From the IMG/VR virus record IMGVR_UViG_3300008262_000013: 64,000 nt of DNA; one strand, given 5' to 3'. Each line of letters opens with the position of its first letter. Position 1 is the stretch's first letter. The notes under the pieces are model-generated. The model made no database searches and was not told where the DNA came from. It was given only the letters and a program-made list of their open reading frames with translations. Origin of the DNA: a virus. Lineage: Duplodnaviria > Caudoviricetes. Position numbers and translations under genes: made by a program. Below, piece by piece: positions 3 through 41,104 of this stretch.

Positions 3-1022
3 GCGGAGAGTTTACAAGCTTATGCATGTGCTACGAGACAATTCATTGGTAAACCACTAACCGATGTTACAGAAATAACTAATAAAACAATTGGTGATGC
101 TGAGTGTGATAGACCATTGGATAAATGTTTAAAAGGTTTAAATGCAAATTGGTATCACAGTGTCATAACTACAGCCAATGAAATTTTTAAAGATGTCAAA
201 CCTCAAGGTAAATATATGTTTTACCGTGGTGGAAAATTAGTCGGCGACATTTATAAAGAGTTCGGAAAATTTAGAAAAGAAAGTGGTTTATCTGGAGATG
301 ATAAATGGAATCCTGCTGACATTTGGATGGCAAAAAAAGGATTTAAATTTGAAAAAGACTGGTCAACACTTAGAGACTATAATCGATATATCTATGATGA
401 ATTTGCACATAAGAATCTAATTGGAATTTCTTTGAAGTTGGTACCAAAAGGTGATGCACATTCTAAAATATTTAATGATGGTAAACCTCTCATCGCAGAA
501 TGGAATGGGTACAAAATTAGTGATGATATGTTTAGTTCAAAAGACATATATCTGAAATATAAATCAGAAGGTAAAGAAGGTGAAATACAACTTAGAAATT
601 TCTCAAGTCGTCCGGTTACAAGTTCTTGGCAAGGAGAAATTAAAGGTAAAACAGCAGCAGGTGGAAAAATTGGTGGTGGCATTGTAATGACTGCTGCATT
701 AGAATCTGGGATACCAAGAACTAAACTAATGATACCTTCGTCTTTCGGTACTCATATTGAAAAACCTAATGATAAGATTCTAAAAGAATTTGCTACAATG
801 TTTAAAGAATTAAGTAAAAGTAAAAAATCAGTAAAAGATTTAATGACTGAAGCTATGATTTGTCAAAAGAAAGATAAGACTTGGTGGATGTCAAAATTTT
901 TAGGCATACATTATGTTTATACCATTATAAACGAAAAAAAAGAAAATGAAGTTGTTAAATGGTTGTTTGAATATGGATCATCAGCAACTAAGAACAGTAG
1001 TATTTTTATAAAGTATAGCTAA
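3..1022 (+). CDS. 5'-truncated conserved T4-like phage protein, possible PD-(D/E)xK nuclease fold
   Basis: Frame is open from base 3, so the gene starts upstream of the window. WNPADIW...LIGISLK resembles a PD..(D/E/S)xK signature. Confidence 0.5.
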   Translation, partial: AESLQAYACATRQFIGKPLTDVTEITNKTIGDAECDRPLDKCLKGLNANWYHSVITTANEIFKDVKPQGKYMFYRGGKLVGDIYKEFGKFRKESGLSGDDKWNPADIWMAKKGFKFEKDWSTLRDYNRYIYDEFAHKNLIGISLKLVPKGDAHSKIFNDGKPLIAEWNGYKISDDMFSSKDIYLKYKSEGKEGEIQLRNFSSRPVTSSWQGEIKGKTAAGGKIGGGIVMTAALESGIPRTKLMIPSSFGTHIEKPNDKILKEFATMFKELSKSKKSVKDLMTEAMICQKKDKTWWMSKFLGIHYVYTIINEKKENEVVKWLFEYGSSATKNSSIFIKYS

Positions 1023-2254
1023 TGAAATTCTCAGAATATTTAACCGAATCTAAGAAAGAAGGAGCTAACCTTCACTTAGAACATTTAGAAGATAATGTAT
1101 TAAACAGAGGCATAAAAGGTGCAAGAGAGTCAATTGATTTTCTCCGTGCATTGCGTGATATGTTAGCAGGTCATTCTCAATCCAAAGTGAATGTTACTAC
1201 AAAATGGGATGGTGCTCCTGCTGTAATTTGTGGTACTAATCCAGAAAATGGAAAGTTTTTCGTCGGCACAAAATCAGTTTTTAATAAAGAAGGTAAATTA
1301 AATTATACTGATGATGATATTGATAAGAATCATCCTGGTGGAGGACTAAATGAAAAATTAAAAACAGCACTTGCTTTTCTTTCAAAGTTAGAAATTAAAG
1401 GTATATTACAAGGTGACATGTTATTCACTAAAGGTGATATACAAAAACAAAGTATAGACGGCGAATCATATATTACATTTCAGCCTAATACAATTGTTTA
1501 TGCTGTGCCTACTGATTCTGTTATGGCTTCAAAAATGATGGCAGCTCAAATGGGTATCGTGTTTCATACATCGTATTCTGGTAGAACCATGGATACATTG
1601 AAGGCCTCTTTTAATATTGATATTGGTAATTTAAAACAAACTAAAGATGTTTGGTTTAGAGATGCTTCATTTGTTGATGCCTCTGGTACTGCAACATTTA
1701 CTGAAACAGAAACTAAGTTAATTACGAATGTTCTATCTCAAGCAGGCAGAGTATTTCAAACAATCAATCCTCTAGTTCTAAATAGAATATCTTCTTCAGA
1801 TATTTTAAATACACAAATTAAAACATTTAATAATACGAAAGTCAGAGCAGGTCAAAAAATAACTAACACTCGAACACATGTTACAGAATTGATTCGTTGG
1901 GTAGAAGATAGGTTGAATAAAGAAATTCTTGCTGCAAAGAAAGAAGATACGAGGAAAAAAAGAATCGCAGAAAAATCTGAACTGATTAGATTTTACAGAA
2001 GTAGTGCATCTCAACTTGCGGCAATTTTTGACTTAATGAACTTAATTGTAGACGCCAAGATAATGATAGTCAGAAAATTAGAATCTATAAAATCTTCAGT
2101 AAGTACTTTTGTAAATACTGAAGATGGTTTCAAAGTTACTGGTCCAGAAGGTTTTGTTGCAGTAGATAGATTAAGTGGTGGTGCATTGAAACTTATCGAT
2201 AGAATGGAATTTTCGCAACAAAACTTTAATGCCGCAAAGAATTGGAGTAAATAA
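1022..2254 (+). CDS. Ligase-like covalent nucleotidyltransferase with capsid-targeting-like N-terminus
   Basis: Motif I TTKWDG, III-like LQGDMLF, IV PEGFVA, V-like LKLID; HLEHLED near the N-terminus; starts MKFSEYLTES. Confidence 0.55.
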   Translation: MKFSEYLTESKKEGANLHLEHLEDNVLNRGIKGARESIDFLRALRDMLAGHSQSKVNVTTKWDGAPAVICGTNPENGKFFVGTKSVFNKEGKLNYTDDDIDKNHPGGGLNEKLKTALAFLSKLEIKGILQGDMLFTKGDIQKQSIDGESYITFQPNTIVYAVPTDSVMASKMMAAQMGIVFHTSYSGRTMDTLKASFNIDIGNLKQTKDVWFRDASFVDASGTATFTETETKLITNVLSQAGRVFQTINPLVLNRISSSDILNTQIKTFNNTKVRAGQKITNTRTHVTELIRWVEDRLNKEILAAKKEDTRKKRIAEKSELIRFYRSSASQLAAIFDLMNLIVDAKIMIVRKLESIKSSVSTFVNTEDGFKVTGPEGFVAVDRLSGGALKLIDRMEFSQQNFNAAKNWSK

Positions 2255-2662: not shown

Positions 2663-3052
2663 ATGGCTTATTCTAGTCAATTGATGGATCACTATGAGAA
2701 TCCACGAAACGTAGGAAAGTTAGATACAAGTGACACGACTGTTGGTACAGGATTAGTTGGTGCGCCAGCTTGCGGTGACGTTTTAAAGTTGCAAATTAAA
2801 GTTGATGACGGAGTAATTACTGATGCGAAATTTAAGACGTATGGTTGTGGCTCGGCGATTGCATCGTCGTCGCTTGTCACCGAGTGGGTTAAAGGCAAGA
2901 CAATTGATGAAGCGATGGCGATCAAGAATACCCAAATTGCTGAGGAACTTGCATTACCACCAGTCAAAATTCATTGTTCGATTCTGGCGGAAGATGCAAT
3001 CAAAGCAGCTATAAAAGATTATAAAGATAAAAATTTAGCAAAGGCAGCTTGA
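2663..3052 (+). CDS. iscU: Fe-S cluster scaffold protein IscU
   Basis: HYENPRNVG, GAPACGDV, FKTYGCGSAIASSS, LPPVKIHCSILAEDA with all three Cys ligands. Confidence 0.95.
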   Translation: MAYSSQLMDHYENPRNVGKLDTSDTTVGTGLVGAPACGDVLKLQIKVDDGVITDAKFKTYGCGSAIASSSLVTEWVKGKTIDEAMAIKNTQIAEELALPPVKIHCSILAEDAIKAAIKDYKDKNLAKAA

Positions 3053-3927
3053 TGTTAAAACAAGTAGATGGTAAGTGGGCTTTAGTTTCTAAAAAAACAC
3101 AGAGACCACTTGCTTATTACAGAGGTGAGGGTAAACCTTCTGACGAATGGGTTAGGAAACAAGAATCAAGAATTCAAATATTCAAGTCGATGAATGAACA
3201 AAAAGATTCTACGAAGTCTGGTTCTGGTTTAACTATATTCGATATTGATGACACACTCTTTCATACAACTGCTAAGATTGCTGTGAAGAAAGATGGTAAA
3301 GTTGTTCGTGAATTAAATAATCAAGAATTTAATACCTATCAATTAAAGAAAGGTGAAGAATTTGATTATCGCCAATTTCGTGATGCAAAAAAGTTTAAAG
3401 AAGAATCAAAGCCTATTGCCAAAATGTTTGCTAAGGCAAAAGCAATACTCCGTAATGTTGTAAATAAACCGGGTAGTCAGATGATTATTTTGACTGCACG
3501 TAATGATTTTGATGACAAAGAAACATTTTTGGATACATTCAGGCAATATGGTTTAGATATAAACAAGGTAAGAGTCGAACGTGCAGGCAAATTAACAAAG
3601 TTGTCGCCAGCGCACGCTAAGTATGTTATAATATATAATTATTTAAAACAAGGTAAATTTTCCCACGTTCGTTTATTCGATGATAGTATGGCAAACCTAA
3701 AAGAATTTTTACGTTTGAAAAAAGATTTTACAGACGTAACATTTGAGGCATATTTTGCGAAACCAGATGGTTCAGTGGAAAGAATCGGTGGTATAAATGA
3801 AGAACAAGAGTTTGTTTCTAAGGCTGGCGCAGGAGAATGGGGTAGACCAGAACTAACACGTAAATATATAGAAGATACACCAGGACAAAAGGTTCAGAGG
3901 TTTAAGAAATACATAAAGAATATATAA
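3049..3927 (+). CDS. HAD-family phosphatase (Pnkp 3'-phosphatase-like) with short terminal modules
   Basis: FDIDDTL, ILTAR and LFDDS HAD motifs. Short flanking modules are separated by KSMNEQ and GINEEQE. Confidence 0.7.
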   Translation: MMLKQVDGKWALVSKKTQRPLAYYRGEGKPSDEWVRKQESRIQIFKSMNEQKDSTKSGSGLTIFDIDDTLFHTTAKIAVKKDGKVVRELNNQEFNTYQLKKGEEFDYRQFRDAKKFKEESKPIAKMFAKAKAILRNVVNKPGSQMIILTARNDFDDKETFLDTFRQYGLDINKVRVERAGKLTKLSPAHAKYVIIYNYLKQGKFSHVRLFDDSMANLKEFLRLKKDFTDVTFEAYFAKPDGSVERIGGINEEQEFVSKAGAGEWGRPELTRKYIEDTPGQKVQRFKKYIKNI

Positions 3928-3945
3928 TTTTTTTGGAGAATGTGA

Positions 3946-4779
3946 ATGAGAGATTTGATTATAGGATGTTCCACCAACTACGATTGGTCCAAATTAAAAT
4001 ATTGGATCAACTCTATCAATAAATCCGGATTTCAGGGTGATAAGGTCATGATTCTTATGAATTGTGACAAAGATACAGTAAATAAAGTTGTTGAATCCGG
4101 ATTCAATGTTATAGGTTTCAAAAAAGACGAAGAAGGTAATTTAACATATTCCTCTAATATGCCAGTGCATACTGAAAGATTTTTGCACATATACAACTAT
4201 CTAAAAGATAAGGACTATCGATACGTAATTACTACTGATGTTAAAGATGTAGTCTTTCAAAAAAATCCTATTGAATTTTTGGAAAAGGAATGTGTCAATA
4301 AAAATTTACTTTTTGCTTCGGAAAGTATTCGATACAAAGATGAACCATGGGGTGATCAAAACTTAAAAGAAACTTTTGGTCCTTACATTTATGAACAGTT
4401 TAAAAATAATGAGATATTCAATGTGGGTGTTTTGGCTGGACATGGATATGCTATTCGTGATTTAGCACTAAACATTTTTGTTTCTTGTTTGAATCGTCCA
4501 ATTCCTATTTGTGACCAATCAACCTTCAACTTTATGATTAGTCAAAATCCCTACACTTCATTGAGTAAGTATACTCGTTCTGAAGAAGGCTGGGCAGCAC
4601 AGTTAGGTACAACAGGAGATCCATCAAAAGCATTACAATTTGATCCTGTTTTATTGGAAGCCAAACCTAAACTACAAGATGGAATTGTAACGACATCTGA
4701 AGGAAAACAATTTTATATTGTACACCAGTACGATAGAGTACCTGAAATGAAAAATACATTGGAGAAAAAATATGAGTGA
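3946..4779 (+). CDS. Glycosyltransferase-like protein
   Basis: ITTDVKDVVFQ DxxD-type motif, N-G-like NVGVLAG, terminal HQYDR; first gene of a sugar-modification cluster. Confidence 0.55.
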   Translation: MRDLIIGCSTNYDWSKLKYWINSINKSGFQGDKVMILMNCDKDTVNKVVESGFNVIGFKKDEEGNLTYSSNMPVHTERFLHIYNYLKDKDYRYVITTDVKDVVFQKNPIEFLEKECVNKNLLFASESIRYKDEPWGDQNLKETFGPYIYEQFKNNEIFNVGVLAGHGYAIRDLALNIFVSCLNRPIPICDQSTFNFMISQNPYTSLSKYTRSEEGWAAQLGTTGDPSKALQFDPVLLEAKPKLQDGIVTTSEGKQFYIVHQYDRVPEMKNTLEKKYE

Positions 4780-5344
4780 TATGTTAGTAATTAATACGAA
4801 TTCTGAAGCATTTAATATAACAGAAAAAAGAGAATTTAGGCCTTCTGGGTACCACTTTAAACAATTTATTTCTGTAATGGAAAAACCTGTTGTTTTAGAA
4901 ATTGGTTGTGATATCGGTGATACAGCATTTTCTTATCTAGAATGTAATCCTAATTTAACTTTATATTCTATTGACCCGTATGATGATTATGTTGATTGGA
5001 ATGGAAATCATTTGAATGAGAGACAGAAACTTTATCAACATGTGGTGGATAGATTTAAACCATTTGGTGATAGATTTAAACTTATACGAAGTAATTCTGA
5101 TGAAGCGGTTAGTCTTTTTGAAGATGAATTTTTTGATTTAATTTTTATAGATGGACTTCATACTTATGACCAACTAAGTAAAGACTGTGATAATTATTAT
5201 TCCAAACTAAAAACCGGATCAATATTTTCTGGACATGATTATACGGTAATTGAGGGAGTTAATAGGGCTGTTAATGAATTTTCTCAGAAAGTAAATAAAG
5301 AAGTTAATAGTGGTGAAAACGATACGTGGTTTTGGGTCAAATGA
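4772..5344 (+). CDS. Class I SAM-dependent methyltransferase (Methyltransf_24-like)
   Basis: VLEIGCDIG, IDP, DLIFIDGLHTY, GHDY. Confidence 0.85.
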   Translation: MSDMLVINTNSEAFNITEKREFRPSGYHFKQFISVMEKPVVLEIGCDIGDTAFSYLECNPNLTLYSIDPYDDYVDWNGNHLNERQKLYQHVVDRFKPFGDRFKLIRSNSDEAVSLFEDEFFDLIFIDGLHTYDQLSKDCDNYYSKLKTGSIFSGHDYTVIEGVNRAVNEFSQKVNKEVNSGENDTWFWVK

Positions 5345-6030
5345 AAAATTGCATAGTTTTTTCTGGACAATTCAGGACTTTTAAAGATACTGTTGAAAAC
5401 ATCAAAGAGTTTATTCGAATCAATGATTTAGATGTTTATTGTTTTTTATGGACTACAGACGCGGATGAAAAGCGATTTGTAGTCGATAATCTAAAACCTA
5501 TAAACTTTAGATTTGATGATTACTCCAATTATCAAGGTATGTTTGAAGAAATGGAACAAAGAATTCGCCATAATAACCCTAAACCTGCTCCCATCGATAA
5601 GGTTGCTGCAAACGCATCGATGAATTTTGCTAGAAAACAGGCGTATTCTTTAGTGAGAAATAATTATGATAACATCTTCTATTGTAGATATGACATTGAC
5701 ATATACGAACAGTTTACTTTAAAGGAACAAGTTGATTTTGTAGTAACACCATTAGAAGAATCGTATAATTTAATATCGGATATATTTGCAATTATACCTC
5801 AAAAATATGCTAAACATTATTTTTTGTATGATGAATATGAAAATATACACTCAACTAAATTTGAACCTAAGTTTGAAGAATGGTTGAGAAGTATTAAAAA
5901 ATACGGTGAAGAAAACATCAGGATTCATAGAGATGATAGATATTGTCCACATATGATGTTGTTACGCAATTTATGGAATAATAATGTACCCTTTGTTATA
6001 GAAAACCTTCCTGTGAGAATAAAAAGATGA
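5341..6030 (+). CDS. Putative glycosyltransferase-like protein, paralog of the next gene
   Basis: IVFSGQFRT ... YCRYDI pattern; ATG at 5341 preferred. Confidence 0.45.
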   Translation: MKNCIVFSGQFRTFKDTVENIKEFIRINDLDVYCFLWTTDADEKRFVVDNLKPINFRFDDYSNYQGMFEEMEQRIRHNNPKPAPIDKVAANASMNFARKQAYSLVRNNYDNIFYCRYDIDIYEQFTLKEQVDFVVTPLEESYNLISDIFAIIPQKYAKHYFLYDEYENIHSTKFEPKFEEWLRSIKKYGEENIRIHRDDRYCPHMMLLRNLWNNNVPFVIENLPVRIKR

Positions 6031-6752
6031 AAATAGCTTTATGTTTTTCTGGACAAGCCAGATCGTTTGAAAAAGGTTACGAATATTATAAAAAAAATCT
6101 CTTAGATAATTATGATGTAGATGTTTACATTCATAGCTGGAAATTTGATGGTGAAGAAAAGTTTTTGGATCTTTACAAACCAAAATCTTTTAAATTTAGT
6201 GATCCTTACTCAAATACTGAACAAGGATTTAAGTTGGATGATTACTATACGCATACACCAAATAGAGAAAAATATCCACCAAGATTTACATATTCGATGT
6301 TTGATTCTATGTATAGGTGTTTAGAATTATTGGTTCACGAATCATTAAACAATCGGACTGATTATAATTGGGTAATAAGAACTCGAACTGATTATGCTTT
6401 GAATGTTTCGATTCCTTTTGAAACACTAGATTCAAACAAACTTTATATACCAAATTGTAGAATGGTACCAGAAAGAGATTTTGGAAATGACCAGTTCGCA
6501 TTTTCATCATATAATAATATGAAAAAATATATGTCAACTTTCATGAACATAAATCACTACTATGATGATTTGAAAACATTATTCATAGGTGAAGATTTGA
6601 TGAAAGCCAATTTACATGAACATAATTTATTTGGTGAAAATTTGGTTTATGTTAATATGAATAATCCTTTTCCACCAGGATCCCACAACGGAACTTGGCA
6701 CTCATTGATTCGAGATGATTACGAAGAATGGACAAACAATTCAAAAAAATAA
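6027..6752 (+). CDS. Putative glycosyltransferase-like protein
   Basis: KIALCFSGQARS, DVYIHSW, IRTRTD, NDQFAF. Confidence 0.45.
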   Translation: MKIALCFSGQARSFEKGYEYYKKNLLDNYDVDVYIHSWKFDGEEKFLDLYKPKSFKFSDPYSNTEQGFKLDDYYTHTPNREKYPPRFTYSMFDSMYRCLELLVHESLNNRTDYNWVIRTRTDYALNVSIPFETLDSNKLYIPNCRMVPERDFGNDQFAFSSYNNMKKYMSTFMNINHYYDDLKTLFIGEDLMKANLHEHNLFGENLVYVNMNNPFPPGSHNGTWHSLIRDDYEEWTNNSKK

Positions 6753-7486
6753 TCAAAGAATTAAAAGGACATTCTGGAAATAAAATAACTTTGGTTGAAA
6801 ACGATAATATTTTATACGTTGAAAAAACTGGAGATATAGAAAGAAATTTTGAAAGAATGAAGTTTCTTTATGAAAACAACTATAATGTACCATTAATTTT
6901 TGAAAGTGATGGAAAAACATTCATGAACATGGAGTATATCCATGGTCTTGATATGAAAGAATATTTAAAAACACATAATATAAAGTTTCTTTTTAATTTT
7001 ATATTTGATATATTAAAACAGTTTTCTGAAAATAGTGAAGTTGTAGATTACACTGAAACATATTATAAAAAGTTATCTTTTCTTGATGATGTGAATGATT
7101 TACCTTTCTCTAAAGAAGAATTTATATATTCTTTACCTAAAAAAATACCCAGATCACATTATCATGGAGATTTTACTTTAGAAAATTTAATTTATACAGA
7201 AAACAAATTCGTTATGATTGATCCAGTAACAATAGAATATGATTCTTATATATTTGATATAGCTAAACTTAGACAAGATTTAGAGTGTAAATGGTTTCTT
7301 AGAGAGACAGACTTAAGATTAGATGTAAAATTAAATGAGTTACAAGAGAGAATACTGAATTCTTTTCCCTTGGCTAAAGATGATAATTTATTAATATTGA
7401 TGTTATTAAGAGTTTATAGGCACACTAAGAGTGGTGATAATAATCATCAGTTTATTTTGAAGGCGATTGAAAAATTATGGAAATAA
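6728..7486 (+). CDS. APH/choline-kinase-like phosphotransferase
   Basis: HGDFTLEN catalytic loop, MIDP, DIAKL. Confidence 0.75.
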   Translation: MDKQFKKIIKELKGHSGNKITLVENDNILYVEKTGDIERNFERMKFLYENNYNVPLIFESDGKTFMNMEYIHGLDMKEYLKTHNIKFLFNFIFDILKQFSENSEVVDYTETYYKKLSFLDDVNDLPFSKEEFIYSLPKKIPRSHYHGDFTLENLIYTENKFVMIDPVTIEYDSYIFDIAKLRQDLECKWFLRETDLRLDVKLNELQERILNSFPLAKDDNLLILMLLRVYRHTKSGDNNHQFILKAIEKLWK

Positions 7487-8520
7487 TTGTACCTGCAGCA
7501 GGACTTTCAACCAGATTTCCCAATACTAAACCCAAATATCTATTATATGATTACGGTCATAAAATGATGATACAGAGAGCTCTGGATCCTTGGTTAAAAA
7601 CCGAACATAATATAACGGTTGGAGTTTTAAAACAACATGATGAAAAATTTAACTCTGTAGATTTTTTGAAGTATGAATTTGGTGATAGAATTAATGTGGT
7701 TATTTTAGAAGAAATGACCGAAGGTCCGGCTGACACTGTTTATAAAATCATAAAAAAATCTAATATTGATTTAACACAACAATTATTAGTTAAAGATTGT
7801 GACAGTTTTTTTCATATGGATAAAGTTGAAACCGAAAACTTCGTATGCACTTCAAATATAGCTGATCATGAGGTATTGAAAAAATTATCATCAAAAAGTT
7901 TTGTTATAAAAAATGAACAAGGTATAATTACTAGTATTATAGAAAAAAAAGTTGTATCTGATACCTTTTGTGTTGGTGGTTACGGATTTAAAAATGTTCA
8001 ATCATATTGTGACACATTTGAACAATTAAAAAAATCTCAAACGAATAGAGAAATTTTTGTTTCAGATGTAATATCCAAACAACTGGAAGATGGTGAAATT
8101 TTCAGTTCAGTTTCGGTTAAAAATTACACGGATGTAGGAACGCAAGAAGATTGGCATGAATACAATAACAAACCTGTTATATTTTGTGATATAGACGGCA
8201 CACTAATAGTATCACAAAGTAGAGTTGGACAAAATAACTTTTATAGTTCTTATATTGCTTTAGAAAAAACTGTTAATAAACTATTAGATTTACAGAAAAA
8301 TGGAGCTCAATTTATATTTGTAACTTCTAGACCTAAAAATTTAGAAAGACAAACTCATAATTTACTCACATCTCTAGGATTTAAAAATTATGAATTAATT
8401 ATAGGATTACAAAATTCTACTAGAATATTAATAAATGATTTTAATAATGCGAATCCACACCCTAGAGCAATATCAATTAATGTAGAACGAGACAAGGACC
8501 AAGCATGGATGTATCTTTAA
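7477..8520 (+). CDS. Sugar-phosphate nucleotidyltransferase fused to a HAD phosphatase
   Basis: N-terminal IIVPAAGLSTRF...KP, GPADT, KDCD; C-terminal FCDIDGTL, VTSR, INDF. Confidence 0.8.
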   Translation: MEIIVPAAGLSTRFPNTKPKYLLYDYGHKMMIQRALDPWLKTEHNITVGVLKQHDEKFNSVDFLKYEFGDRINVVILEEMTEGPADTVYKIIKKSNIDLTQQLLVKDCDSFFHMDKVETENFVCTSNIADHEVLKKLSSKSFVIKNEQGIITSIIEKKVVSDTFCVGGYGFKNVQSYCDTFEQLKKSQTNREIFVSDVISKQLEDGEIFSSVSVKNYTDVGTQEDWHEYNNKPVIFCDIDGTLIVSQSRVGQNNFYSSYIALEKTVNKLLDLQKNGAQFIFVTSRPKNLERQTHNLLTSLGFKNYELIIGLQNSTRILINDFNNANPHPRAISINVERDKDQAWMYL

Positions 8521-9221
8521 TTCCTAATAAAATTTTATTTATTGTTACTTCAGCTTTAAATTCAAAAGTTGGAGTTGTGAATAGTACTCAAAGATTACAA
8601 CAGACAGTAGAAACACTAATTAATTTAAAACAAAAAGTGCCTGAAGCCACTATACTTCTTGTAGATGGTTCGCCTGATCCAGTTCCCGAAGAAACGAAAA
8701 AAATAATCAGTCAACATTGTCAATGTATTTGGTTTGGAGAACATCCAGAAATAAATTCAATGTCATCAATAGGTAGACAAAGTGAGGCTGAACTTTTACT
8801 ATTATTTAATACCTTTATTTTATTTAAACGTGTTCCTGAATTTATGAGTTTTTTGCATGGAGTCAAAAGAATTTTCAAATTTTCAGCGAGAAGTTTTTTA
8901 GAAGATGATTTCGACATTAATGAGTATGATAATCTTTTTGGTAAGTATGTGTTTAAGAAATCTTTGCCATCTTGGATGCCACCCGAAAGAAAAAAGAATA
9001 TAACTGATCATCTCTACATTACAAGAATGTATTCCTTTTGTCCTTCTTTATTGGATAATTACTTACAACAAATTCAACCAATGTTAAACAACGTGATGCA
9101 ACATAGAATCGATTTCGAACATGCTCATTATCTTTGTCTAGATAAAACACATATAGTTGAATTTGATAGAATAAAATGTTCTGGCATCGTATCGGTTTCG
9201 GGACAAATGGAAAGATATTAA
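8505..9221 (+). CDS. Hypothetical protein, possible glycosyltransferase
   Basis: Inside the sugar cluster; LLVDGS and FKFSAR motifs only. Confidence 0.35.
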   Translation: MDVSLIPNKILFIVTSALNSKVGVVNSTQRLQQTVETLINLKQKVPEATILLVDGSPDPVPEETKKIISQHCQCIWFGEHPEINSMSSIGRQSEAELLLLFNTFILFKRVPEFMSFLHGVKRIFKFSARSFLEDDFDINEYDNLFGKYVFKKSLPSWMPPERKKNITDHLYITRMYSFCPSLLDNYLQQIQPMLNNVMQHRIDFEHAHYLCLDKTHIVEFDRIKCSGIVSVSGQMERY

Positions 9222-9222
9222 T

Positions 9223-9999
9223 ATGATTAATGAATTTGAATATGAAAAATTACAAAATGAGTTTAAAAATGGACAACCATTTTCTCATTGTGTTATAGAT
9301 AATTTTTTTGATGAAGAAACGGCTTTAAAATTGTCAGAAGAATTTCCCGACTATAATGATAACGTTTGGTCTATCTATGATAATCCAATAGAAAATAAAA
9401 GAACTAATTCAAACTGGAATTTGTTTCCAAAAGAAACATATCAATTCTTTTCTTTAATGAATGGTGATGAGTTTATAGAAAAAGTAAAAAAAATTACAGG
9501 TATTGATGATTTGGCTGCCGATTATGGATTACACGGCGGCGGGTGGCACATGCATGGTCGCAACGGAAAATTGAATTTACATAAAGATTATTCTATTCAT
9601 CCAAAACTTGAAATGGAAAGAAGAATTAATATTATCATTTACATGACACCAATTTGGCAAGAATCTTGGGGTGGAGGGTTGGAATTATGGTCAAATGATG
9701 AGGAAAAAAATTTACCAAAAGAATGTATTAAAAAAATTGATAATAAATTTAACCGTGCTGTAATTTTCGACACTACGCAGAATTCGTGGCATGGCCTTCC
9801 TGATGCGATTAATTGTCCTCCAGGAATGTACAGAAAATCTTTAGCAATATACTATGTCTCTCCTCCAAGAAAAGAAGCTGAAGTACATGACCGAGCACTT
9901 TTTGCACCTTACAAAGATCAGGTTAGTGACCCTAAAATTTTAGAATTGATTAAAAAAAGATCAAGTTCTAAAACCTCTGGTGAAGTTTATAGGACATAA
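9223..9999 (+). CDS. 2OG-Fe(II) oxygenase
   Basis: LNLHKDY (HxD), GGGLELW, SWHG, YRKS. Confidence 0.85.
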   Translation: MINEFEYEKLQNEFKNGQPFSHCVIDNFFDEETALKLSEEFPDYNDNVWSIYDNPIENKRTNSNWNLFPKETYQFFSLMNGDEFIEKVKKITGIDDLAADYGLHGGGWHMHGRNGKLNLHKDYSIHPKLEMERRINIIIYMTPIWQESWGGGLELWSNDEEKNLPKECIKKIDNKFNRAVIFDTTQNSWHGLPDAINCPPGMYRKSLAIYYVSPPRKEAEVHDRALFAPYKDQVSDPKILELIKKRSSSKTSGEVYRT

Positions 10000-10019: not shown

Positions 10020-10027
10020 TATAAATA
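10020..10027 (+). promoter_or_regulatory. T4-type late promoter TATAAATA
   Basis: Exact consensus in the intergenic gap, 40 nt upstream of the 907-aa ORF. Confidence 0.75.
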
Positions 10028-10067
10028 CAAGATAAAATTAGACTAACTGCTGTAGAGGCGGAGAAAT

Positions 10068-12791
10068 ATGAAATTTAAAGACTTTCTATTAGAACAGAAA
10101 GAAAAACACGCTGTCATGGCTTTCGGCCGTATGAATCCGATTACGAACGGCCATGAAAAAGTAGTCAAGGAAGTCAAAAAAATTGCTAAGCAATTTGACG
10201 CATCCCACCACATCGTACTGTCACATTCTCAAGATCCGAAGAAAAATCCTCTTACAGTACAGCAAAAAATGAAACACGCTAAGCGTGCATTTCCCGATAC
10301 AAAATTTGTAGCAGCATCCAGTGAATCTCCCACATTTTTCGAATATGCCGAAAAGTTATACAAACAAGGTGTAACTCATTTTCACATGGTTGCTGGTTCT
10401 GATCGAGCTCTCGAATATTTAAAATTACTCAAAAAATATAATGGTACACATAAGGGTGCTAGATTTAATTTTAAATACATGGGTGTAGAATCTGCCGGTG
10501 AACGTGACCCAGATGCAGAAGGCGCAGAGGGTATCTCCGCATCAAAGATGCGTGATGCTGCCGCAAAGGGAGATTTCAAAACTTTTAAAAAAGGCGCACC
10601 ATCAAAAATGTCAGTTGATCAGGTAAAAGACATGTATAATGATGTGCGTAAAGGTATGAACATTAAAGAAAGCATCAATGAAGAATTCGAAGAACTTCTC
10701 GTTGAAGGTGTACATGATCAAAGTATTTTCAAAGCAGTATTTTTAGCAGGCGGTCCAGGTTCAGGTAAAGATTATGTGTTAAGTAATACATTAGATGGCC
10801 ATGGATTAACAGAAATTAATTCTGATAAAGCTTTAGAGTTCTTAATGGATAAAAAAGGACTTGATAAGAGAATGCCTGAGAATGAAACTGAAGCGAGAGA
10901 TATCGTTCGAGGCAAAGCTAAGAGTGTAACTGAATTACGTCAACGTTTAGCATTACAGGGAAGAAACGGTTTAATCATCAATGGTACAGGCGATGATCCT
11001 AAAAAGGTTGCAAAAATTAAATCAAAATTAGAAGAATTGGGTTACGACACCTCAATGATTCTTGTCAATACAAATGATGAAGTGTCTGCACAAAGAAACA
11101 TTGAACGTGGTCAAAGAGGTGGTAGAACTGTACCAGAAACAATTCGTAAAGAAAAATGGGACAATGTTCAAAACGCACGTACAGAATACGCAAAGATATT
11201 TTCTGATCGTTATATGGAGTTTGACAACTCGGAAGATTTGCGACAAGCGCCACCTGATGTGGTTAAAGAAAAGAAAATGGAAATGTTGCAACTCTTTAAG
11301 AATGTTAAAGAGTTCGTTGCACAACCTCCACAATCTCCTGCTGCTCAAGAATGGGTAGCAAATGAACTTCAACAAAAAGATACATTAAAGCCGGACACAA
11401 AAGGTGCAGAAAAGATTCCACCAAGTGGATCTAGTGCTGCTGATGAAGCTAGAAAGATGGGATTACAATATTATGGATTTGGCCGTTACGGTAAAAATGG
11501 TAAAACTACACACCGTTCAGTGCATGACAAATTAGTACAAGTAACAAACAAAGAACCAGAACAACCAAAATTACCAACACCAGGTTCTTCACCAGTTGAT
11601 AATAAATCTAAAGTCAAAAAAGAATCTATTGATGACGAATTTGAAAATCTTATTTCAGAAGATTTGCGTAAGTGGTTTAGTAAAACTGATCCAGAAGGTG
11701 GTTGGAAAAGAATTAATAGTAAAGGTGAAGCAATTGGTCCTTGCGCTCGTGAACCTGGTGAACCAAAACCAAAATGTATGTCAAACGAAAAACGTGCTTC
11801 ATTGTCCAAGAAAGAACGTGCATCTGCTGTCGCAGCAAAACGTAAACATGATCCTGTTGCAGACAGAGGTGGCAAAGGTGGTAAACCTGTGAATGTTTCT
11901 AATTTTGGAAAAGGAAAACTATCTGAAGCTGTAACAGTTTCGGTTACTGGTGATACAGTTGATGAAGTAAAAGACTTCTTTACTACATTCAATAATAATG
12001 TAACCCATGAAGAATCATATGCTTTGTCTGATTCAAAGACTGATGCTATAACATTAGGTAAATTTATGCAACCCTTTGGTGAGAAAATGGAAAATACCAT
12101 GATCACTAATGAGATGATGCAAGATATGCTTGATGAAAGTCAACATAATTTATTGAAAGATAAACAAGGTAGAGTTAGAGTTTTCATGTTGCGCTCTGTT
12201 GCAGCAAAAGAAGCACATACGAAACAAGGTATCGTTTTGAAACATAAAAATGGTTATGTAATTAAACTAAAAGAGGAGATTGAAAATGTTGAAGTTTATA
12301 AAGGAACTATTCGGAATTGGATTGAAGAATCCAAACAAGCACGGGTTAGAGGGAGCATCGACAGCTCCAAACCAGGACTTCTCACAGAGAGTAGAACAAT
12401 ACTCAGCACCAGTGGAAGCACCAGTTCAGGAACAAACAGTTCAAGAGAAACCAAAGACGCAAAAGAAGGCACCAGCATCCAAGAAGCCATCGCCAAAGAA
12501 ACAAGAAACAAAATCACCCTCTCAGAAATCAGGCAGAGGCAGAAAACCTGGTCAGAAGAACAAATCAACGAAATAGATCGTGGTATTGAACCTGGTCTAT
12601 CAATGGCTGGTGCAGGTGAAAGTATTGGTAGAGATATGGGAGAAAAAATTAAAAAAAGATCCCATAAAGTTACTACAGTAGAAATGACTGGTGATGAAAC
12701 AACAGCTTCTATTGGTGATCAAAAAGAAGGTGAGTTAAAAAGAAAAGGTATTAATTTAACGACATTCAAAGCAAAAAGGCCGATAGGATGA
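10068..12791 (+). CDS. Multidomain protein: HxGH nucleotidyltransferase + P-loop kinase + small modules; putative packaged polyprotein
   Basis: GRMNPITNGH, VAGSDR, ISASKMR; LAGGPGSGK, INGTG, RNIER; Glu-rich linkers; starts MKFKDFLLEQ. Confidence 0.75.
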   Translation: MKFKDFLLEQKEKHAVMAFGRMNPITNGHEKVVKEVKKIAKQFDASHHIVLSHSQDPKKNPLTVQQKMKHAKRAFPDTKFVAASSESPTFFEYAEKLYKQGVTHFHMVAGSDRALEYLKLLKKYNGTHKGARFNFKYMGVESAGERDPDAEGAEGISASKMRDAAAKGDFKTFKKGAPSKMSVDQVKDMYNDVRKGMNIKESINEEFEELLVEGVHDQSIFKAVFLAGGPGSGKDYVLSNTLDGHGLTEINSDKALEFLMDKKGLDKRMPENETEARDIVRGKAKSVTELRQRLALQGRNGLIINGTGDDPKKVAKIKSKLEELGYDTSMILVNTNDEVSAQRNIERGQRGGRTVPETIRKEKWDNVQNARTEYAKIFSDRYMEFDNSEDLRQAPPDVVKEKKMEMLQLFKNVKEFVAQPPQSPAAQEWVANELQQKDTLKPDTKGAEKIPPSGSSAADEARKMGLQYYGFGRYGKNGKTTHRSVHDKLVQVTNKEPEQPKLPTPGSSPVDNKSKVKKESIDDEFENLISEDLRKWFSKTDPEGGWKRINSKGEAIGPCAREPGEPKPKCMSNEKRASLSKKERASAVAAKRKHDPVADRGGKGGKPVNVSNFGKGKLSEAVTVSVTGDTVDEVKDFFTTFNNNVTHEESYALSDSKTDAITLGKFMQPFGEKMENTMITNEMMQDMLDESQHNLLKDKQGRVRVFMLRSVAAKEAHTKQGIVLKHKNGYVIKLKEEIENVEVYKGTIRNWIEESKQARVRGSIDSSKPGLLTESRTILSTSGSTSSGTNSSRETKDAKEGTSIQEAIAKETRNKITLSEIRQRQKTWSEEQINEIDRGIEPGLSMAGAGESIGRDMGEKIKKRSHKVTTVEMTGDETTASIGDQKEGELKRKGINLTTFKAKRPIG
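12286..12576 (+). CDS. Nested same-strand ORF (96 aa, MLKFIKELFGIG..., Lys/Pro-rich tail)
   Basis: GAGGAG 7 nt before the ATG; stop-free in a different frame inside the 907-aa gene. Confidence 0.55.
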   Translation: MLKFIKELFGIGLKNPNKHGLEGASTAPNQDFSQRVEQYSAPVEAPVQEQTVQEKPKTQKKAPASKKPSPKKQETKSPSQKSGRGRKPGQKNKSTK

Positions 12792-13372
12792 AAACATTTA
12801 AAGAATTAATGTTAGAGAGATGTTGGCCAGGTCATAAACCTGTACCTGGTAAAAAACCTTATTCACCAGGTTCTTGTGTAAAAGAAGAACAACTTGATGA
12901 AATGCCTGGTGCTAATATGGACACTAGAGCAGTACATAAGCATCTTAGAAAATCTGGTTGGGAATTAACTAGAACATCCGGTGGTCACGATGTGTTTACT
13001 CATCCAGAAGCTAAGCATCATATTCCTGTTCCTCGTCACAAGCAATTAAAGGCACCATTAGTTCGTGGTATTCTAAAAGCTGCCAAAATAAATGAAGATT
13101 TGGAAGAATCTGCCGCATGGCAACGTAAAGAAGGAAAAAATCCTGAAGGTGGATTAAATCGTAAAGGTATTGCTTCTTATCGCCGTGAAAATCCTGGTTC
13201 AAAATTGTCAATGGCTGTGACTACACCACCATCAAAATTAAAACCAGGAAGTAAAGCAGCGAATCGCCGTAAATCATTTTGCGCTCGTATGGGTGGTATG
13301 CCAGGTCCTATGAAGGATGAAAAAGGTCGTCCAACAAGAAAAGCATTATCTTTGAGAAAGTGGAATTGCTAA
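12788..13372 (+). CDS. Three-module protein containing a HicA-like RNase domain
   Basis: Starts MKTFKELMLE; CWPG..C module; HicA-like LRKSGWELTRTSGGHDVFTH..IPVPRH; C-terminal AWQRKEGK..SFCARM..KWNC module. Confidence 0.75.
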   Translation: MKTFKELMLERCWPGHKPVPGKKPYSPGSCVKEEQLDEMPGANMDTRAVHKHLRKSGWELTRTSGGHDVFTHPEAKHHIPVPRHKQLKAPLVRGILKAAKINEDLEESAAWQRKEGKNPEGGLNRKGIASYRRENPGSKLSMAVTTPPSKLKPGSKAANRRKSFCARMGGMPGPMKDEKGRPTRKALSLRKWNC

Positions 13373-23028: not shown

Positions 23029-23393
23029 CAACCTACGTCAACAGTGGTAACTTTGAACAAACAACAATTGATGAATTCTCAGGACCAAAGATAACTTCAA
23101 TTACTGTAACGAACAGTAGTTATGTTGCCACTGGAGCAACAACAATATCTACAAGTGGTGGATATGTACAAATAGTAGGAACAAGTTTTAGCAGTCCAAT
23201 GCAGGTGTTTTTGGATCCAACAGGAACAAATAGAATTCAAAGTACAACTGCTGCAACATCAGTAACATATGTGAACTCAACTACAATTAATGTACAACTA
23301 CCAGCAAAAGCCGCAGGAAATTATACTTGTTTTGTTGTAAGAACGTCAGACGGACAATTTGCAACAAAAATTAACGGATTAACATACGCATGA
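23025..23393 (+). CDS. Stand-alone IPT/TIG-like domain protein
   Basis: GP.ITSI...GG.V.I.G..F...V.YVNST.I.V..P; paralogous to the N-terminus of the next gene. Confidence 0.6.
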   Translation: MTTYVNSGNFEQTTIDEFSGPKITSITVTNSSYVATGATTISTSGGYVQIVGTSFSSPMQVFLDPTGTNRIQSTTAATSVTYVNSTTINVQLPAKAAGNYTCFVVRTSDGQFATKINGLTYA

Positions 23394-26300
23394 CACAAAA
23401 AATTACATCGGTCAATATTGAAGCAACTACATTAAGTTCATTTACGGGACCAACAATATCCAGTATTGCTATTGCCAATTCAACTTACGTTTTATTAGAT
23501 GATACCGCAGTTTCAAATGCTGGTGGTTATGCTGTCATTACAGGAAGTAACTTCACAAGTGGCGCCCAAGTTTTATTTGGTAGTACACCAGCAACAGCAG
23601 TTACTTTTGTTAATTCAACTACATTAAATGTTCAAGTGCCTGAATTGACAGCAGGTAGTTACGTTACCTATGTACAAAATGCGGATGGTTCTACTGCAAT
23701 CAGGTTGAATGGTATCACCTCAAGTCCTATACCTGTTTGGGCTACAGGAAGTACATTGACACCTCAAACTGATGGTGTTGCTATTTCTGTTCAATTATCG
23801 GCAACATCTGATTCGAGTGTTGTATATTCTGTAGCTAACGGCAGTTCTTTGCCTTCTGGAACAACATTAGATTCAAATGGTTTGTTTAGTGGTACGATTT
23901 CTGGATTAAGTGGTGATACAACATATAATTTTAGTGTAAATGCAATTGATGCTGAAAATCAAGAAACACTAAGATCATTCAGTGTAACGGTGGTTTCAGG
24001 AGATCCGTTTTTTAAAGATACTGTATTGTTGTTGAATGGTGAAACAAGTAATAATACATGGATTACTGATGTAAGCACAAATAAATTTGCACTTACGGTG
24101 GCTGGTGATACACGACCAAACGCATTTAGTCCGTATGGAACTGTTCGGAGTAATTATTTTGACGGTACTGGTGATTGGTTATCATTAACAAGCCAAGCTA
24201 ATCTAGCATTAGGCACTACAGATTTTACAATAGAATTTTGGGTTTATATAGCATTAAATACGATACCAACTAATATTACATTTTACGATCAACGTAACAA
24301 TACCAATGGATTTTCAGTGGTGCAGCCTGTTATTGAGTTGACTTCGGGTACTGGATATGCATGGTATTCCGAAGCCGCAAATAAGATAACAACAGGTACT
24401 TCCGTAGTAAGATTAAATGCATGGCAACATGTGGCTGTATCTAGGTCGGGTACTACTACTAGAATGTTTATAGATGGAGTTCAAGCTGGAAGCAGTTTCA
24501 CTGATACACTAAATTATCCAGCAGGAAGTCTTAATATAGGTCGAGCAAACGATGGAGTAAGTACTAGGAATCATACTGGATATATCTCCAATCTTAGAGT
24601 AGTAATAGGAACTGCACTTTACACATCAACTTTTACACCCTCAACTTCACCATTAACAGCAATTACAAACACACGTTTATTAACCTGTCAATCTAATCGT
24701 TTAATTGATAATAGTACAAATAACTTTACAATTACAAGAAACGGTGATGTATTAGTAAGCAACTTTGGTCCTTTTGTTGAAACAGACACAACAACAGGCA
24801 GTGGTTATTTTGATGGTACTGGAGATTATATAGATGCACCAAGCAATGTAGCATTTACACTTGGTACATCAGATTTTACAATAGAAGGTTATCTATACTT
24901 AATTTCAGGAACCACGGGAACACTGTATGATTCAAGAACAGGCTCGACTACAATATCTCCAGTGATATATTTAAACGCCGGAGCGTTAACTTATTTTGTT
25001 GCAGCGAATAGAATTGGTGGACCTACACTAGTTGCTGGACAATGGCATCACATTGCAGTTTCACGAAGTGGAACAAGTACAAAATTGTTTTTAAATGGAG
25101 AACAAGTAGGATTAACATATACTGATACGAATAATTATGTTATAGGTGGCCCAAAAATTGGAGCTGGATATAACAACACTAACCTGTTGAACGGTTATAT
25201 TTCTAATTTAAGAGTATTAAAAGGTACTGCATTATACACATCAAACACTGCGCCACCAACTGCACCATTAACCGCAACAGCGGATACGAGTTTACTTACA
25301 TTACAATCACGCATTGGTGAAAACAATAATAGATTTATCGATACTTCTGGTATAAACAGTATTATAACAAGAAGTGGTAATACCTCACAGGGAACATTTA
25401 GTCCGTTTCAGATAGGCGGTTGGAGTAATTTTTTTGATGGTACGGGAGATTACATTTCTACAGCTGATAATGCAGTTTTGAATCCAGGAACTCAAGATTT
25501 TGTCATGGAAGCATGGGTTTATTTTACAGGTACAACTGGTGCCAATCAAGGTATAAACGGCAAAGGAACTGCGGGCACCAATGGATATTCATTCTTTATA
25601 ACGAACGCTCTAGTCTTAAGTTTCATTTGGAATGGAACGGGCGGAACAACAATTACTGGAGGAACACTCAGTTTAAATACATGGAATCATGTCGCTGTTG
25701 TAAGAAATAATAGCGTAATTCGATTATATTTGAATGGTGTGGGAGCAGGATCTTCTACTGCATGTACAACTGATATAACATCTACCGCTATCAAATATAT
25801 TGGCCAAGCTCGTGGTGCTAATCCTATGTTAGGTTACATAAGTAACTACAGAATGATGAAGGGTTCGCGTCCCTCTGGATATGATGCTACATCGTCATCA
25901 CTTACAGTACCGTCATTACCATTAACTGATGTCGCTAACACTTCAATATTAACTTGTGCTGATAATGCATTTATTGATGATAGTCCAAATAATTTTGCGA
26001 TTACACGTAACGGTGATGCATCGGTGCAACCGTTTAATCCATTTAAAGCACATACAATAGTACCCAATACTCGTAGTGTTTATTTTGATGGGACAGGGGA
26101 TTATCTGTCTACCCCAGACAGCACTGCTTTTGATTTTGGTACTGGGTCATTAACTGTAGAAGCGTGGATTTATACTGGTGTAAAAGTTGATTATCAAAGT
26201 ATTGTTGGTTCTTTTGACGGTTCCAGTAATGGGTGGTATTTACACACAAATTCATTAGGAACTATTACATATGGACTAACTCCAAGTGCCCCATATAATG

Positions 26301-39564: not shown

Positions 39565-40725
39565 TTAAACAAACCAAGTAATAATAGAATATCTAGTGCC
39601 TTTGATTACAGGCATGATTTCGTGTGGATACATAAAATTTGAAGGGAACATGATTACTGATCCTTTCTTTAAATTATAAATCAACTCTCTATCAAAGAAA
39701 GCAAATTCTCCACCTCCAAAATCATCATTTAGTGCGAAAGAACAAGACACTGCTCTAGGATGTTTTTTGTATGAATCTGTATGTTGCCGGTAAAATTGCC
39801 CTACCTCATACTTTAATAAATCATATCCAGAATCTTCTTCTATTTGACTTAGTGGGAAAATATCATTATATTTTCTAATGACCTCATTTGCAACTTTATA
39901 AAGTCTATCATCTAAAAGTTTTCTTATTTCGGGATTTTTTAAAATTGTATTTTCGTGTGAAATAGGAATTGTATTTACATTTCTAGCATTTAAATTCATT
40001 TCCTCGTATCCTACTCCAGCAAGACACCAATTATCATCATTCTTATACTCATTTATAATTTCATCACATAGTGAGTAGGGAATAATATCTTCATAAATTT
40101 GAATGAAATCTGATATTTTATTTTTGGAGTTTATTTTAACTGGTGTTGTTTTTTCTTGTTTCACACTTTCTTCTTTTTTGATTGGAGAATCTTTTTTCTT
40201 ATCAAAATAAGTATAAGCTTTATCACCTCTACTTCTTACATAATGTAAAAATACCTGAACATATTCTTTACCTAAAAATTGATTTCTCCAATGATCAGCA
40301 ACACATCCCAAATAAAGCATTGCATCACCTGGTTTTAGAATCAATTCAACTTCATTACCATCAGGAGTTTCAATATAAATTGGCCAATCTTCATCACCAT
40401 CTAAATGTACAGTTAAACTTATTTCGCAAGCATCTCTATCCCTATGTCTTTCCAAAACACTACCATCTTTATACACTCTAGCATAACTATATGTTGGTAA
40501 AACGGTTTCACCTATAATTGTGCTCACCGTTGGTACTTTATCACATAGCATTTCTAAAAAGTCTATGAAATTATATTCCGCTGAAGAATTTGGAGCTTGA
40601 TTGTCTCCTTGAACCTCATTTTGTTTACAGTGACTTTTGAAGTTGGAAGCCATGACTTTTGCAGCGGCTTCACTAATGAAGTTGGGAATATAGATATAAT
40701 TATTTTCAGTTAATGATTTATTCAT
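39565..40725 (-). CDS. Tandem double 2OG-Fe(II) oxygenase
   Basis: Domain 1 HRDR..CEIS...HWR; domain 2 HTD...GGGEF...HEI..GTRYS; likely start MNKS at 40725. Confidence 0.85.
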   Translation of the reverse strand: MNKSLTENNYIYIPNFISEAAAKVMASNFKSHCKQNEVQGDNQAPNSSAEYNFIDFLEMLCDKVPTVSTIIGETVLPTYSYARVYKDGSVLERHRDRDACEISLTVHLDGDEDWPIYIETPDGNEVELILKPGDAMLYLGCVADHWRNQFLGKEYVQVFLHYVRSRGDKAYTYFDKKKDSPIKKEESVKQEKTTPVKINSKNKISDFIQIYEDIIPYSLCDEIINEYKNDDNWCLAGVGYEEMNLNARNVNTIPISHENTILKNPEIRKLLDDRLYKVANEVIRKYNDIFPLSQIEEDSGYDLLKYEVGQFYRQHTDSYKKHPRAVSCSFALNDDFGGGEFAFFDRELIYNLKKGSVIMFPSNFMYPHEIMPVIKGTRYSIITWFV

Positions 40726-40744
40726 AATATAATCACTTTTTAAT

Positions 40745-41104
40745 TTAATTGTTTTCTGCTGCAGCTGCGGCTTCATCAGCAGCATCTGATGCCGCTAGTG
40801 CAGCTTGTTTTATATTATATGCTTGCAACCATACATCATAACAGTTGATAGCCCATTGTGGTAATTCAGTTATATTTTCATTAGGATCGGTCGATCTAAA
40901 TTCTAACCAACCAGATCCTTGGCCATATTGCAATCCATTTAGATGGGAATTTTGTTTATCTGGCCAAATGGGATTATTCCATTGTAATGCATGTATATTA
41001 TCTGGTATTCCACATTGAGATAAGTCTAACTCTGATAAACCTTCTTGGTCTGTAACGACAATACCATCAACAGGAATTACTACTAATTTATGTGTTTGAA
41101 TCAT
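40745..41104 (-). CDS. Tail-fibre-associated protein
   Basis: IHALQW..GWLEF pattern; position in the fibre module. Confidence 0.45.
   Translation of the reverse strand: MIQTHKLVVIPVDGIVVTDQEGLSELDLSQCGIPDNIHALQWNNPIWPDKQNSHLNGLQYGQGSGWLEFRSTDPNENITELPQWAINCYDVWLQAYNIKQAALAASDAADEAAAAAENN

Follow-up and report, generated by a model that had tools for sequence, protein, structure and literature searches.

The internal proteins of phage T4 are the textbook case of phage proteins that are injected with the DNA and, to our knowledge, the known T4 cargo is small and, Alt excepted, non-enzymatic. T4 IPII and IPIII have the N-terminus MKTYQEFIAE, and in this capsid-targeting sequence residues 4 and 7 serve targeting to the capsid and residues 8 and 10 serve processing (PMC9026906). 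Polyvalent proteins, in which unrelated enzymatic domains are joined in one chain encoded beside virion genes, are also predicted to be injected with the DNA (Iyer et al. 2017; PMC5512222). The subject here is a 907-amino-acid open reading frame (ORF) at 10068-12791 (+) of a 64,000-nucleotide stretch of viral DNA, hereafter the window (IMG/VR record IMGVR_UViG_3300008262_000013; Duplodnaviria, Caudoviricetes), whose product has a nucleotidyltransferase and a P-loop kinase behind a leader of T4 type. It is best described as T4-type capsid-targeted cargo that overlaps the concept of the polyvalent protein, and it is probably a late-expressed cargo polyprotein of a T4-like marine myovirus.

The leader, MKFKDFLLE (10068..10094, +), resembles the T4 capsid-targeting sequence, and when it is shifted by one residue Phe, Phe, Leu and Glu stand at positions 4, 7, 8 and 10. 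Only three ORFs of the window start in this way, the other two being one for HicA and DUF6321 (MKTFKELMLE) and one for DUF6267 (MKFSEYLTE), and no such leader stands behind any other ATG in any frame of the window. Of the family members extended at the N-terminus, 179 in number, 158 keep it, distant ones included (MKSFLEILQE, MKTFGSYLAE). The 68-nt gap in front of the ORF holds the T4-type late promoter TATAAATA (10020..10027, +), 41-48 nt 5′ of the ORF, and a GGAG ribosome-binding site was read in the sequence at 10060-10063 (+). In the 64 kb the promoter sequence occurs three times where shuffles lead one to expect 8.1, a scarcity consistent with selection against stray late promoters, and at 20 of 29 related loci it recurs no more than 70 nt in front of the gene. 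All three related genomes searched, among them that of a complete relative with 84% identity in this protein, encode a prohead protease of the gp21 type (Peptidase_S77, PF03420). Leader pattern, late promoter and protease, the last seen in the relatives only, are together the marks of T4-type cargo with a capsid-targeting sequence.

Virion proteomics of homologues points the same way. The S-CREM2 cytidylyltransferase gp154, which starts MKNFSSFLTE and is homologous to the nucleotidyltransferase domain considered here, is a virion protein found by mass spectrometry (published S-CREM2 proteome). S-CREM2 gp160, which carries a module of the DLRKWF type described below, also appears in that phage's table of virion proteins, where a 7 after its product name is read as a peptide count, and the cytidylyltransferase of S-SZBM1 (S-SZBM1_140) was also found in virions. 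An earlier note on this DNA, made from the sequence alone, had put forward virion delivery, and the T4-type leader, the late promoter, the gp21-type protease of relatives and these proteomes now support it well. The cyanophage ‘cytidylyltransferase’ (T4-like GC190) is homologous to the domain here at 30-45% identity, is present in virion proteomes and has a capsid-type leader in S-CREM2, S-RIM8 and S-SM2; it differs in that most of its members lack a kinase domain and have other C-terminal extensions. The main text of Sullivan 2010 makes no mention of the cytidylyltransferase gene. Its recurrence in cyanophage virion proteomes is given a concrete reason by the capsid cargo reading, which also comes with testable cleavage sites. 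A separate observation concerns S-CREM2 gp156 (L004, 5013-5726), two genes past the cytidylyltransferase and also in the virion proteome table, which has the Pol-beta-type nucleotidyltransferase signature GGNANY...SDIDLHLV and would add a further enzyme to the cargo that the head probably carries.

The two-domain pair takes up residues 1-437, the first half of the 907-residue product. A nucleotidyltransferase of the HIGH superfamily (TxGH / SxSKMR; residues 12-201; 10101..10670, +) is followed by an acidic, disordered linker (residues 202-213; 10671..10706, +) that ends L-V-E|G and is a candidate prohead-protease site, then by the P-loop kinase (residues 214-437; 10707..11378, +) and by a variable C-terminal half (residues 438-907; 11379..12791, +). 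In Pfam, CTP_transf_like (PF01467) matches residues 18-110 with 26.7 bits in the whole protein and 29.4 bits for residues 1-210 (cut-off 21), and Zeta_toxin (PF06414) matches residues 222-370 with 50.2 bits (cut-off 22.3), AAA_33 passing as well. In PHROGs the ‘cytidyltransferase’ phrog_3041 lies at residues 9-204 (E 1.5e-60) and phrog_12810 covers the kinase region, residues 210-433. The motifs GRMNPITNGH (20-29) and ISASKMR (156-162) are those of the first domain, INEEFEELLVE (203-213) is the linker and GGPGSGK (228-234) the P-loop. Structure prediction with AlphaFold2, a check that the earlier note had suggested, gives two confidently folded domains when 43 homologues are aligned: mean predicted local distance difference test (pLDDT) is 89.7, with values above 90 in the nucleotidyltransferase and below 50 only in residues 202-211 of the linker. 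The predicted TM score (pTM) of the two-domain part is 0.54, so the relative orientation of the domains is undefined. The earlier description of a HIGH nucleotidyltransferase, a Glu-rich linker and a zeta-toxin/AAA-like kinase is thus confirmed by motifs, Pfam, PHROGs and AlphaFold2; the pair is where it had been placed, though the kinase domain does not end at 11330 and extends to about residue 437 (nt 11378).

The boundaries between the units of the polyprotein are marked by a recurrent short motif. Directly before the kinase, 23 of 23 aligned homologues, down to 36% identity, have [LIVF]-x-E and then Gly. In the C-terminal half, where residues 430-907 match no Pfam or NCBIfam family, a basic module with the pattern DLRKWF...GGW...CAR...KC (residues 532-620; nt 11661-11927, +) is flanked by ISE|D and LSE|A. 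Three PHROGs families (phrog_727, phrog_3477 and phrog_12753) all begin at residue 532, directly after I-S-E, and [LIVMF]xE stands before the DLRKWF module in 100 of 103 instances that include several different upstream contexts. The next ORF (12788..13372, +), which overlaps the 907-codon ORF by 4 nt, encodes HicA (PF07927) and DUF6321 (PF19846) behind its own leader. Both phrog_3477 and phrog_727 cover this ORF together with the DLRKWF module, the two being fused in other phages, and so these units are reshuffled between phages. Most of the 29 related loci show the same 4-nt overlap with a next ORF, whose product there has the N-terminus MKSFK(S/T)(F/Y)I(T/A)E, and the slot holds different small leader-bearing cargo in relatives.

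The events proposed for this product run as follows. The 9-residue leader would direct the 907-residue chain into the prohead core in the manner of the T4 internal proteins, and a gp21-type protease would probably strip it and cut at hydrophobic-x-Glu sites, after E9, E213, E531 and E620. Such cuts would release the HIGH nucleotidyltransferase, the kinase and the basic C-terminal modules, which may then be ejected together with the DNA and be active as soon as infection begins. Packaging, cleavage, injection and chemistry are what we infer for this particular protein. An injected pair would be at work ahead of all phage gene expression, when host defenses decide the outcome. What gives the case its wider interest is that a T4-type tag is found here on a conserved and extremely abundant enzyme pair of ocean and lake phages, whose carriers include relatives of pelagiphages and cyanophages.

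Several points weigh against this account. The leader is absent in 23 of 202 family members, and in P-HM1 both the nucleotidyltransferase and DUF6267 are without it, so packaging is not universal in the family. Detection in virions concerns the S-CREM2 and S-SZBM1 homologues and not the protein of this phage; the published detections rest on few peptides, and the S-CREM2 authors concede possible contamination. With regard to the junctions, the invariant E213-G214 could serve to cap the kinase structurally instead of being a cleavage site, and the enrichment of [LI]xE in the protein is only modest (15 sites, where shuffles give 8.6 +/- 2.6).

Set beside IPI, IPII, IPIII and Alt of T4, the protein shares a leader of about 10 residues with the pattern M-K-x-aromatic-x-acidic-hydrophobic-aliphatic-x-Glu, late gene expression signals and, in relatives, a protease of gp21 type. 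Variable cargo behind a conserved tag is common to both, and Alt is a precedent for an enzyme as cargo. The difference lies in the cargo itself, which here is a 907-residue chain of two enzymes and basic modules with internal junctions in place of one small basic protein; neither a HIGH nucleotidyltransferase nor a P-loop kinase is known T4 cargo, and packaging and cleavage are predictions here. The likeness to polyvalent proteins is that at least two unrelated effector domains share one chain beside virion genes, and relatives add lysozyme and DUF6321, with one weak, sub-threshold ART-PolyVal match in one of them. In contrast to polyvalent proteins, the MPTase, ArdC-N, MuF and DdrB-ParB hubs are missing and delivery would depend on a T4-type leader. 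The text of PMC5512222 mentions neither zeta-type kinases nor NMNAT, and uses ‘nucleotidyltransferase’ only for Pol-beta enzymes.

By score, motifs and fold the first domain belongs to the HIGH / CTP_transf_like superfamily (PF01467). In the alignment that reaches down to 36% identity, its residues G20, R21, G28, H29, N60, P61, G110, D112, R113, Y124, G144, R146, S157, K160 and R162 are invariant, and the conserved motifs are TxGH (T26-N-G28-H29), KKNPL (at N60 and P61) and SxSKMR (S157, K160 and R162). The same alignment leaves invariant in the kinase the P-loop from G228 to K234 as well as D253, R281, R299, N344, R347, R353 and N387. Because catalytic residues are invariant over this range, both domains look like working enzymes.

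The nucleotidyltransferase stands between two groups of known enzymes. Its GRxNP and SxSKMR motifs resemble those of archaeal-type NMNAT, and TxGH and KKNPL are PPAT-like, KKNPL being identical in alignment to the motif of Pseudomonas PPAT. Its nearest structures in VIA comparisons are archaeal NMNAT (1f9a, Z 13.4), a putative NadD (13.2), NadM (13.2) and PPAT (4nah, 13.0), and the NMNAT and PPAT matches extend over about 153 residues. A profile search against PDB sequences gives only marginal matches (3gmi, a TmcAL homologue, E 0.0065; PPAT, 0.14; NMNAT, 0.35), so it does not separate an NMNAT-like from a PPAT-like enzyme. All NCBIfam equivalog models stay far under their cut-offs: NadD reaches 16.5 bits against 112, nadR_NMN_Atrans (TIGR01526) 19.6 against 341.15 and over residues 16-87 only, and coaD (TIGR01510) 13.3 against 103.3. 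A feature search of the ESM Atlas returned viral CTP_transf_like clusters only. On these comparisons the domain represents a family of its own, specific to phages, within the NMNAT/PPAT branch.

The kinase belongs to the zeta toxin family PF06414 by its score, its invariant GGPGSGK Walker A motif and the Asp (D253) that follows strand 2. The structures nearest to it (VIA Z) are the uncharacterized kinase 2rhm (15.1), PSTK (14.5) and the Pnk of Clostridium (Cth; 13.9), followed by Kti12, zeta (1gvn) and T4 Pnk, all at 12.6, AvrRxo1 at 12.0 and dephospho-CoA kinase (DPCK) at 10.1-10.7; Pnkp1 is also among the neighbors. In hhalign the kinase matches T4 PseT (Pnk) with a probability of 86% and E 4.7e-6, K234 falling on the P-loop Lys, D253 on the catalytic Asp35 and R343 and R347 on the lid residues Arg122 and Arg126, and its RNxxRG..VP segment falls on the T4 Pnk lid. 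Pfam gave no match to AAA_28, the ribosylnicotinamide kinase (RNK) type, up to E 1, and none to the CoaE family. From these alignments the kinase is of the PNK/PSTK/zeta clade, outside the RNK and DPCK families. Adenylate and UMP-CMP kinases were also considered. These hold the nucleoside monophosphate (NMP) through Arg in their NMP-binding segments; they match in P-loop and lid with E values of 1e-6 to 1e-4, yet the kinase here has no Arg at the positions that align with those segments and has the catalytic Asp typical of the PNK/zeta clade, so this identity was rejected.

The chemistry would most likely be ATP-dependent phosphorylation of a hydroxyl together with nucleotidyl transfer to a phosphate, the acceptor being either a nucleotide or the end of a nucleic acid. 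Which of these it might be is approached through the company that the domains keep, and especially through the DUF6267 protein (1022..2254, +; PF19782, E 1.5e-112), whose gene sits 7-9 kb upstream in this lineage and which here also bears a capsid leader. In phrog_455 DUF6267 is fused to the nucleotidyltransferase; P-HM1 and S-RIM8 have its gene immediately 5′ of that for the nucleotidyltransferase, HTVC008M has it three genes upstream, and the linkage persists even where neither protein has a leader. In relatives it was located at 287-1492 of locus L063, 354-1250 of L062 and 4245-5477 of L001 (HTVC008M). In its conserved KWDGAP, PEGFV and LKLIDR one sees a likeness to the motifs numbered I, IV and V in ligases and capping enzymes. 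QGDxLF and FHTSY are also seen, as is a long helical insert that is missing from the S-RIM8 version.

T4-like cyanophages are not known to have a recognizable DNA ligase, and DUF6267 might be the ligase that they seem to lack. The linkage of the nucleotidyltransferase to DUF6267 in cyanophages and pelagiphages is a hint that the ends of nucleic acids are healed, more than that a cofactor is salvaged. Because of that linkage, the DUF6267 motifs and the Pnk-like kinase, end healing is the leading rival account of what the cargo does. The PNK-like kinase would phosphorylate 5′-OH ends of RNA or DNA, the ligase-like DUF6267 would seal them, and the nucleotidyltransferase would activate or cap the 5′-phosphate or supply the nucleotide cofactor of the ligase, the whole countering anticodon nucleases, or damage to ends, early in infection. 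The best link of the kinase to a characterized enzyme is indeed that to T4 Pnk, with which it shares the P-loop, the Asp after strand 2 and the aligned lid, and PSTK, Cth Pnk, Kti12 and Pnkp1 are among its structural neighbors. It differs from T4 Pnk in having an adenylate-kinase-type P-loop, GGPGSGKD, and in two respects that count against this account: the position of Arg38, which in T4 Pnk holds the 3′-phosphate of the acceptor, is L256 here with a family consensus of F/L, and Pfam finds no HAD domain or fused 3′-phosphatase in the 907-residue protein. The AlphaFold2 model of the DUF6267 protein, built with 22 close homologues, has a pLDDT of 53, too poor for a fold search that could confirm a ligase fold, and sequence searches of PDB and Pfam found nothing beyond DUF6267 and no ligase family. 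Most cyanophages, moreover, have the nucleotidyltransferase without this kinase, and we know of no RNA-repair pathway that employs a HIGH-family nucleotidyltransferase. End healing is rather unlikely. The more specific proposal of a head-loaded, three-enzyme end-remodeling kit, in which DUF6267, the PNK-like kinase and the HIGH nucleotidyltransferase heal, seal or cap ends at time zero, is unlikely; were it true, it could mean the undoing of anticodon-nuclease or nicking defenses, or NAD-type 5′ capping, and it would give a HIGH-family nucleotidyltransferase a role that is absent from known repair pathways.

The earlier note had proposed a resemblance to NadR or to CoA synthase (PPAT + DPCK; COASY in eukaryotes), with a virion-delivered pair that offsets NAD-depleting defenses. 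Nicotinamide riboside would then be turned into nicotinamide mononucleotide (NMN) by the kinase and NMN into NAD+ by the nucleotidyltransferase; in the CoA version the nucleotidyltransferase would produce dephospho-CoA and the kinase would phosphorylate it. Both systems have a HIGH nucleotidyltransferase first and a P-loop kinase second, and this part of the comparison stands, NadR being first in a Foldseek search. It is first because both domains score together, and its matches have a template modeling (TM) score of 0.25-0.26 and a root-mean-square deviation (rmsd) of 17, for which reason the resemblance is one of layout and not of family; the VIA alignment with NadR likewise runs across both domains with an rmsd of 16. 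Family membership does not hold. In hhalign E. coli NadR aligns over 31 columns around HxGH only (probability 9.5%), the kinase half being unaligned, and E. coli CoaD over 54 columns with a probability of 37%; for NadR neither the NMNAT equivalog nor an AAA_28-type kinase is reached, and for a PPAT + DPCK protein the CoaD score falls short and CoaE is missing, though KKNPL does match PPAT. That the nearest nucleotidyltransferase structures are archaeal NMNAT, NadM and PPAT, and that the weak NCBIfam matches are mostly to NMNAT models, speaks for a cofactor pair, yet the kinase is of another P-loop clade, there is no helix-turn-helix domain, the two domains are separate in many phages and they would here probably be split by proteolysis.

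NAD+ reconstitution was also raised in the earlier note. Three related genomes, two of them complete and the third partial, have no gene of the NadV/NAPRTase family, so a route of NadV plus NMNAT (NARP2 type) is not encoded. NADases yield ADP-ribose and nicotinamide, and not the nicotinamide riboside that a NadR-type route needs. A cofactor pair is very unlikely, and the JGI labels ‘NMN adenylyltransferase’ and ‘dephospho-CoA kinase’ for such proteins are unsupported at family level.

A toxin of zeta or AvrRxo1 type is also very unlikely. Here the kinase would phosphorylate a 3′-OH, either that of a nucleotide-sugar such as UDP-GlcNAc or that of a dinucleotide (NAD/NAAD), for which the adjoining nucleotidyltransferase is a possible source, and the host's wall synthesis or redox metabolism would stop during takeover. 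Among Pfam families Zeta_toxin does score best (50.2-53.8 bits), a profile matches zeta 1gvn with E 3e-4, an xGT motif after strand 3 accompanies the catalytic Asp and the next ORF bears HicA, another toxin-type module, but zeta and AvrRxo1 match no better than PNK and PSTK in structure, the RNxxRG..VP lid aligns with that of T4 Pnk and no antitoxin-like neighbor was seen around the 907-codon and HicA ORFs.

The enzyme pair is widespread. In a collection of 5.8 billion proteins, 4320 match in one length band, and 5612 clusters match in a library at 50% identity, numbers because of which the pairing of the domains is not a chance event. Among the matches listed, the 119 others mostly span all 430 residues (two span 54-61%) at 69-100% identity. 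The identical protein is present on contigs of up to 214,809 bp, and the relative with 84% identity mentioned above is a complete genome of 214,237 bp with terminal repeats. The two-domain core also stands alone (423-450 amino acids), or with N-terminal extensions, or within proteins of 1000-1400 amino acids, those to which lysozyme and DUF6321 are added. In the pelagiphage HTVC008M the domains are two adjoining genes in reverse order, gp129 for the kinase and gp130 for the nucleotidyltransferase. Methylophilales phage Melnitz has the two without linkage, and in hundreds of cyanomyoviruses the nucleotidyltransferase stands without the kinase. The ‘minor head protein’ of cyanophage PSS2 also contains a member of the kinase family, which speaks for head cargo. 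In the RefSeq entry of HTVC008M (locus L001, 5989-8438) gp129 is labeled ‘hypothetical protein’ and gp130, a nucleotidyltransferase with an extension, ‘cytidyltransferase’; the N-terminus of gp129, MIPFILKE|G, is directly at the junction motif.

Judged by its genes, the window comes from a myovirus that is T4-like and marine or aquatic: it encodes ribonucleotide reductase, primase, PstS, baseplate and fiber proteins and a virion structural protein common to cyanomyoviruses. The gene neighboring the 907-codon ORF is for a virion structural protein (phrog_1645), which again speaks for head cargo. When 25 kb of the window were compared with isolated phages by megablast, no match emerged. A run of overlapping genes at 3049-9999 (+) resembles an operon for activation and modification of a sugar or polyol, with HAD phosphatase-like and glycosyltransferase-like genes, a methyltransferase, DUF7796, an APH-like kinase, a fusion of a nucleotidyltransferase with HAD, and a 2-oxoglutarate- (2OG-) Fe(II) oxygenase. 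At 23390-27901 (+) a 1503-amino-acid protein with six Laminin_G_3 (concanavalin-like) repeats matches baseplate-wedge and virion structural PHROGs and is likely a host-recognition structure. Two auxiliary metabolic genes were also seen, one at 2663-3052 (+) for a NifU/IscU-like iron-sulfur scaffold (E 9e-53) and the other at 39565-40785 (-) for a 405-amino-acid protein that matches PHROGs annotated as ferrochelatase and 2OG-Fe(II) oxygenase.

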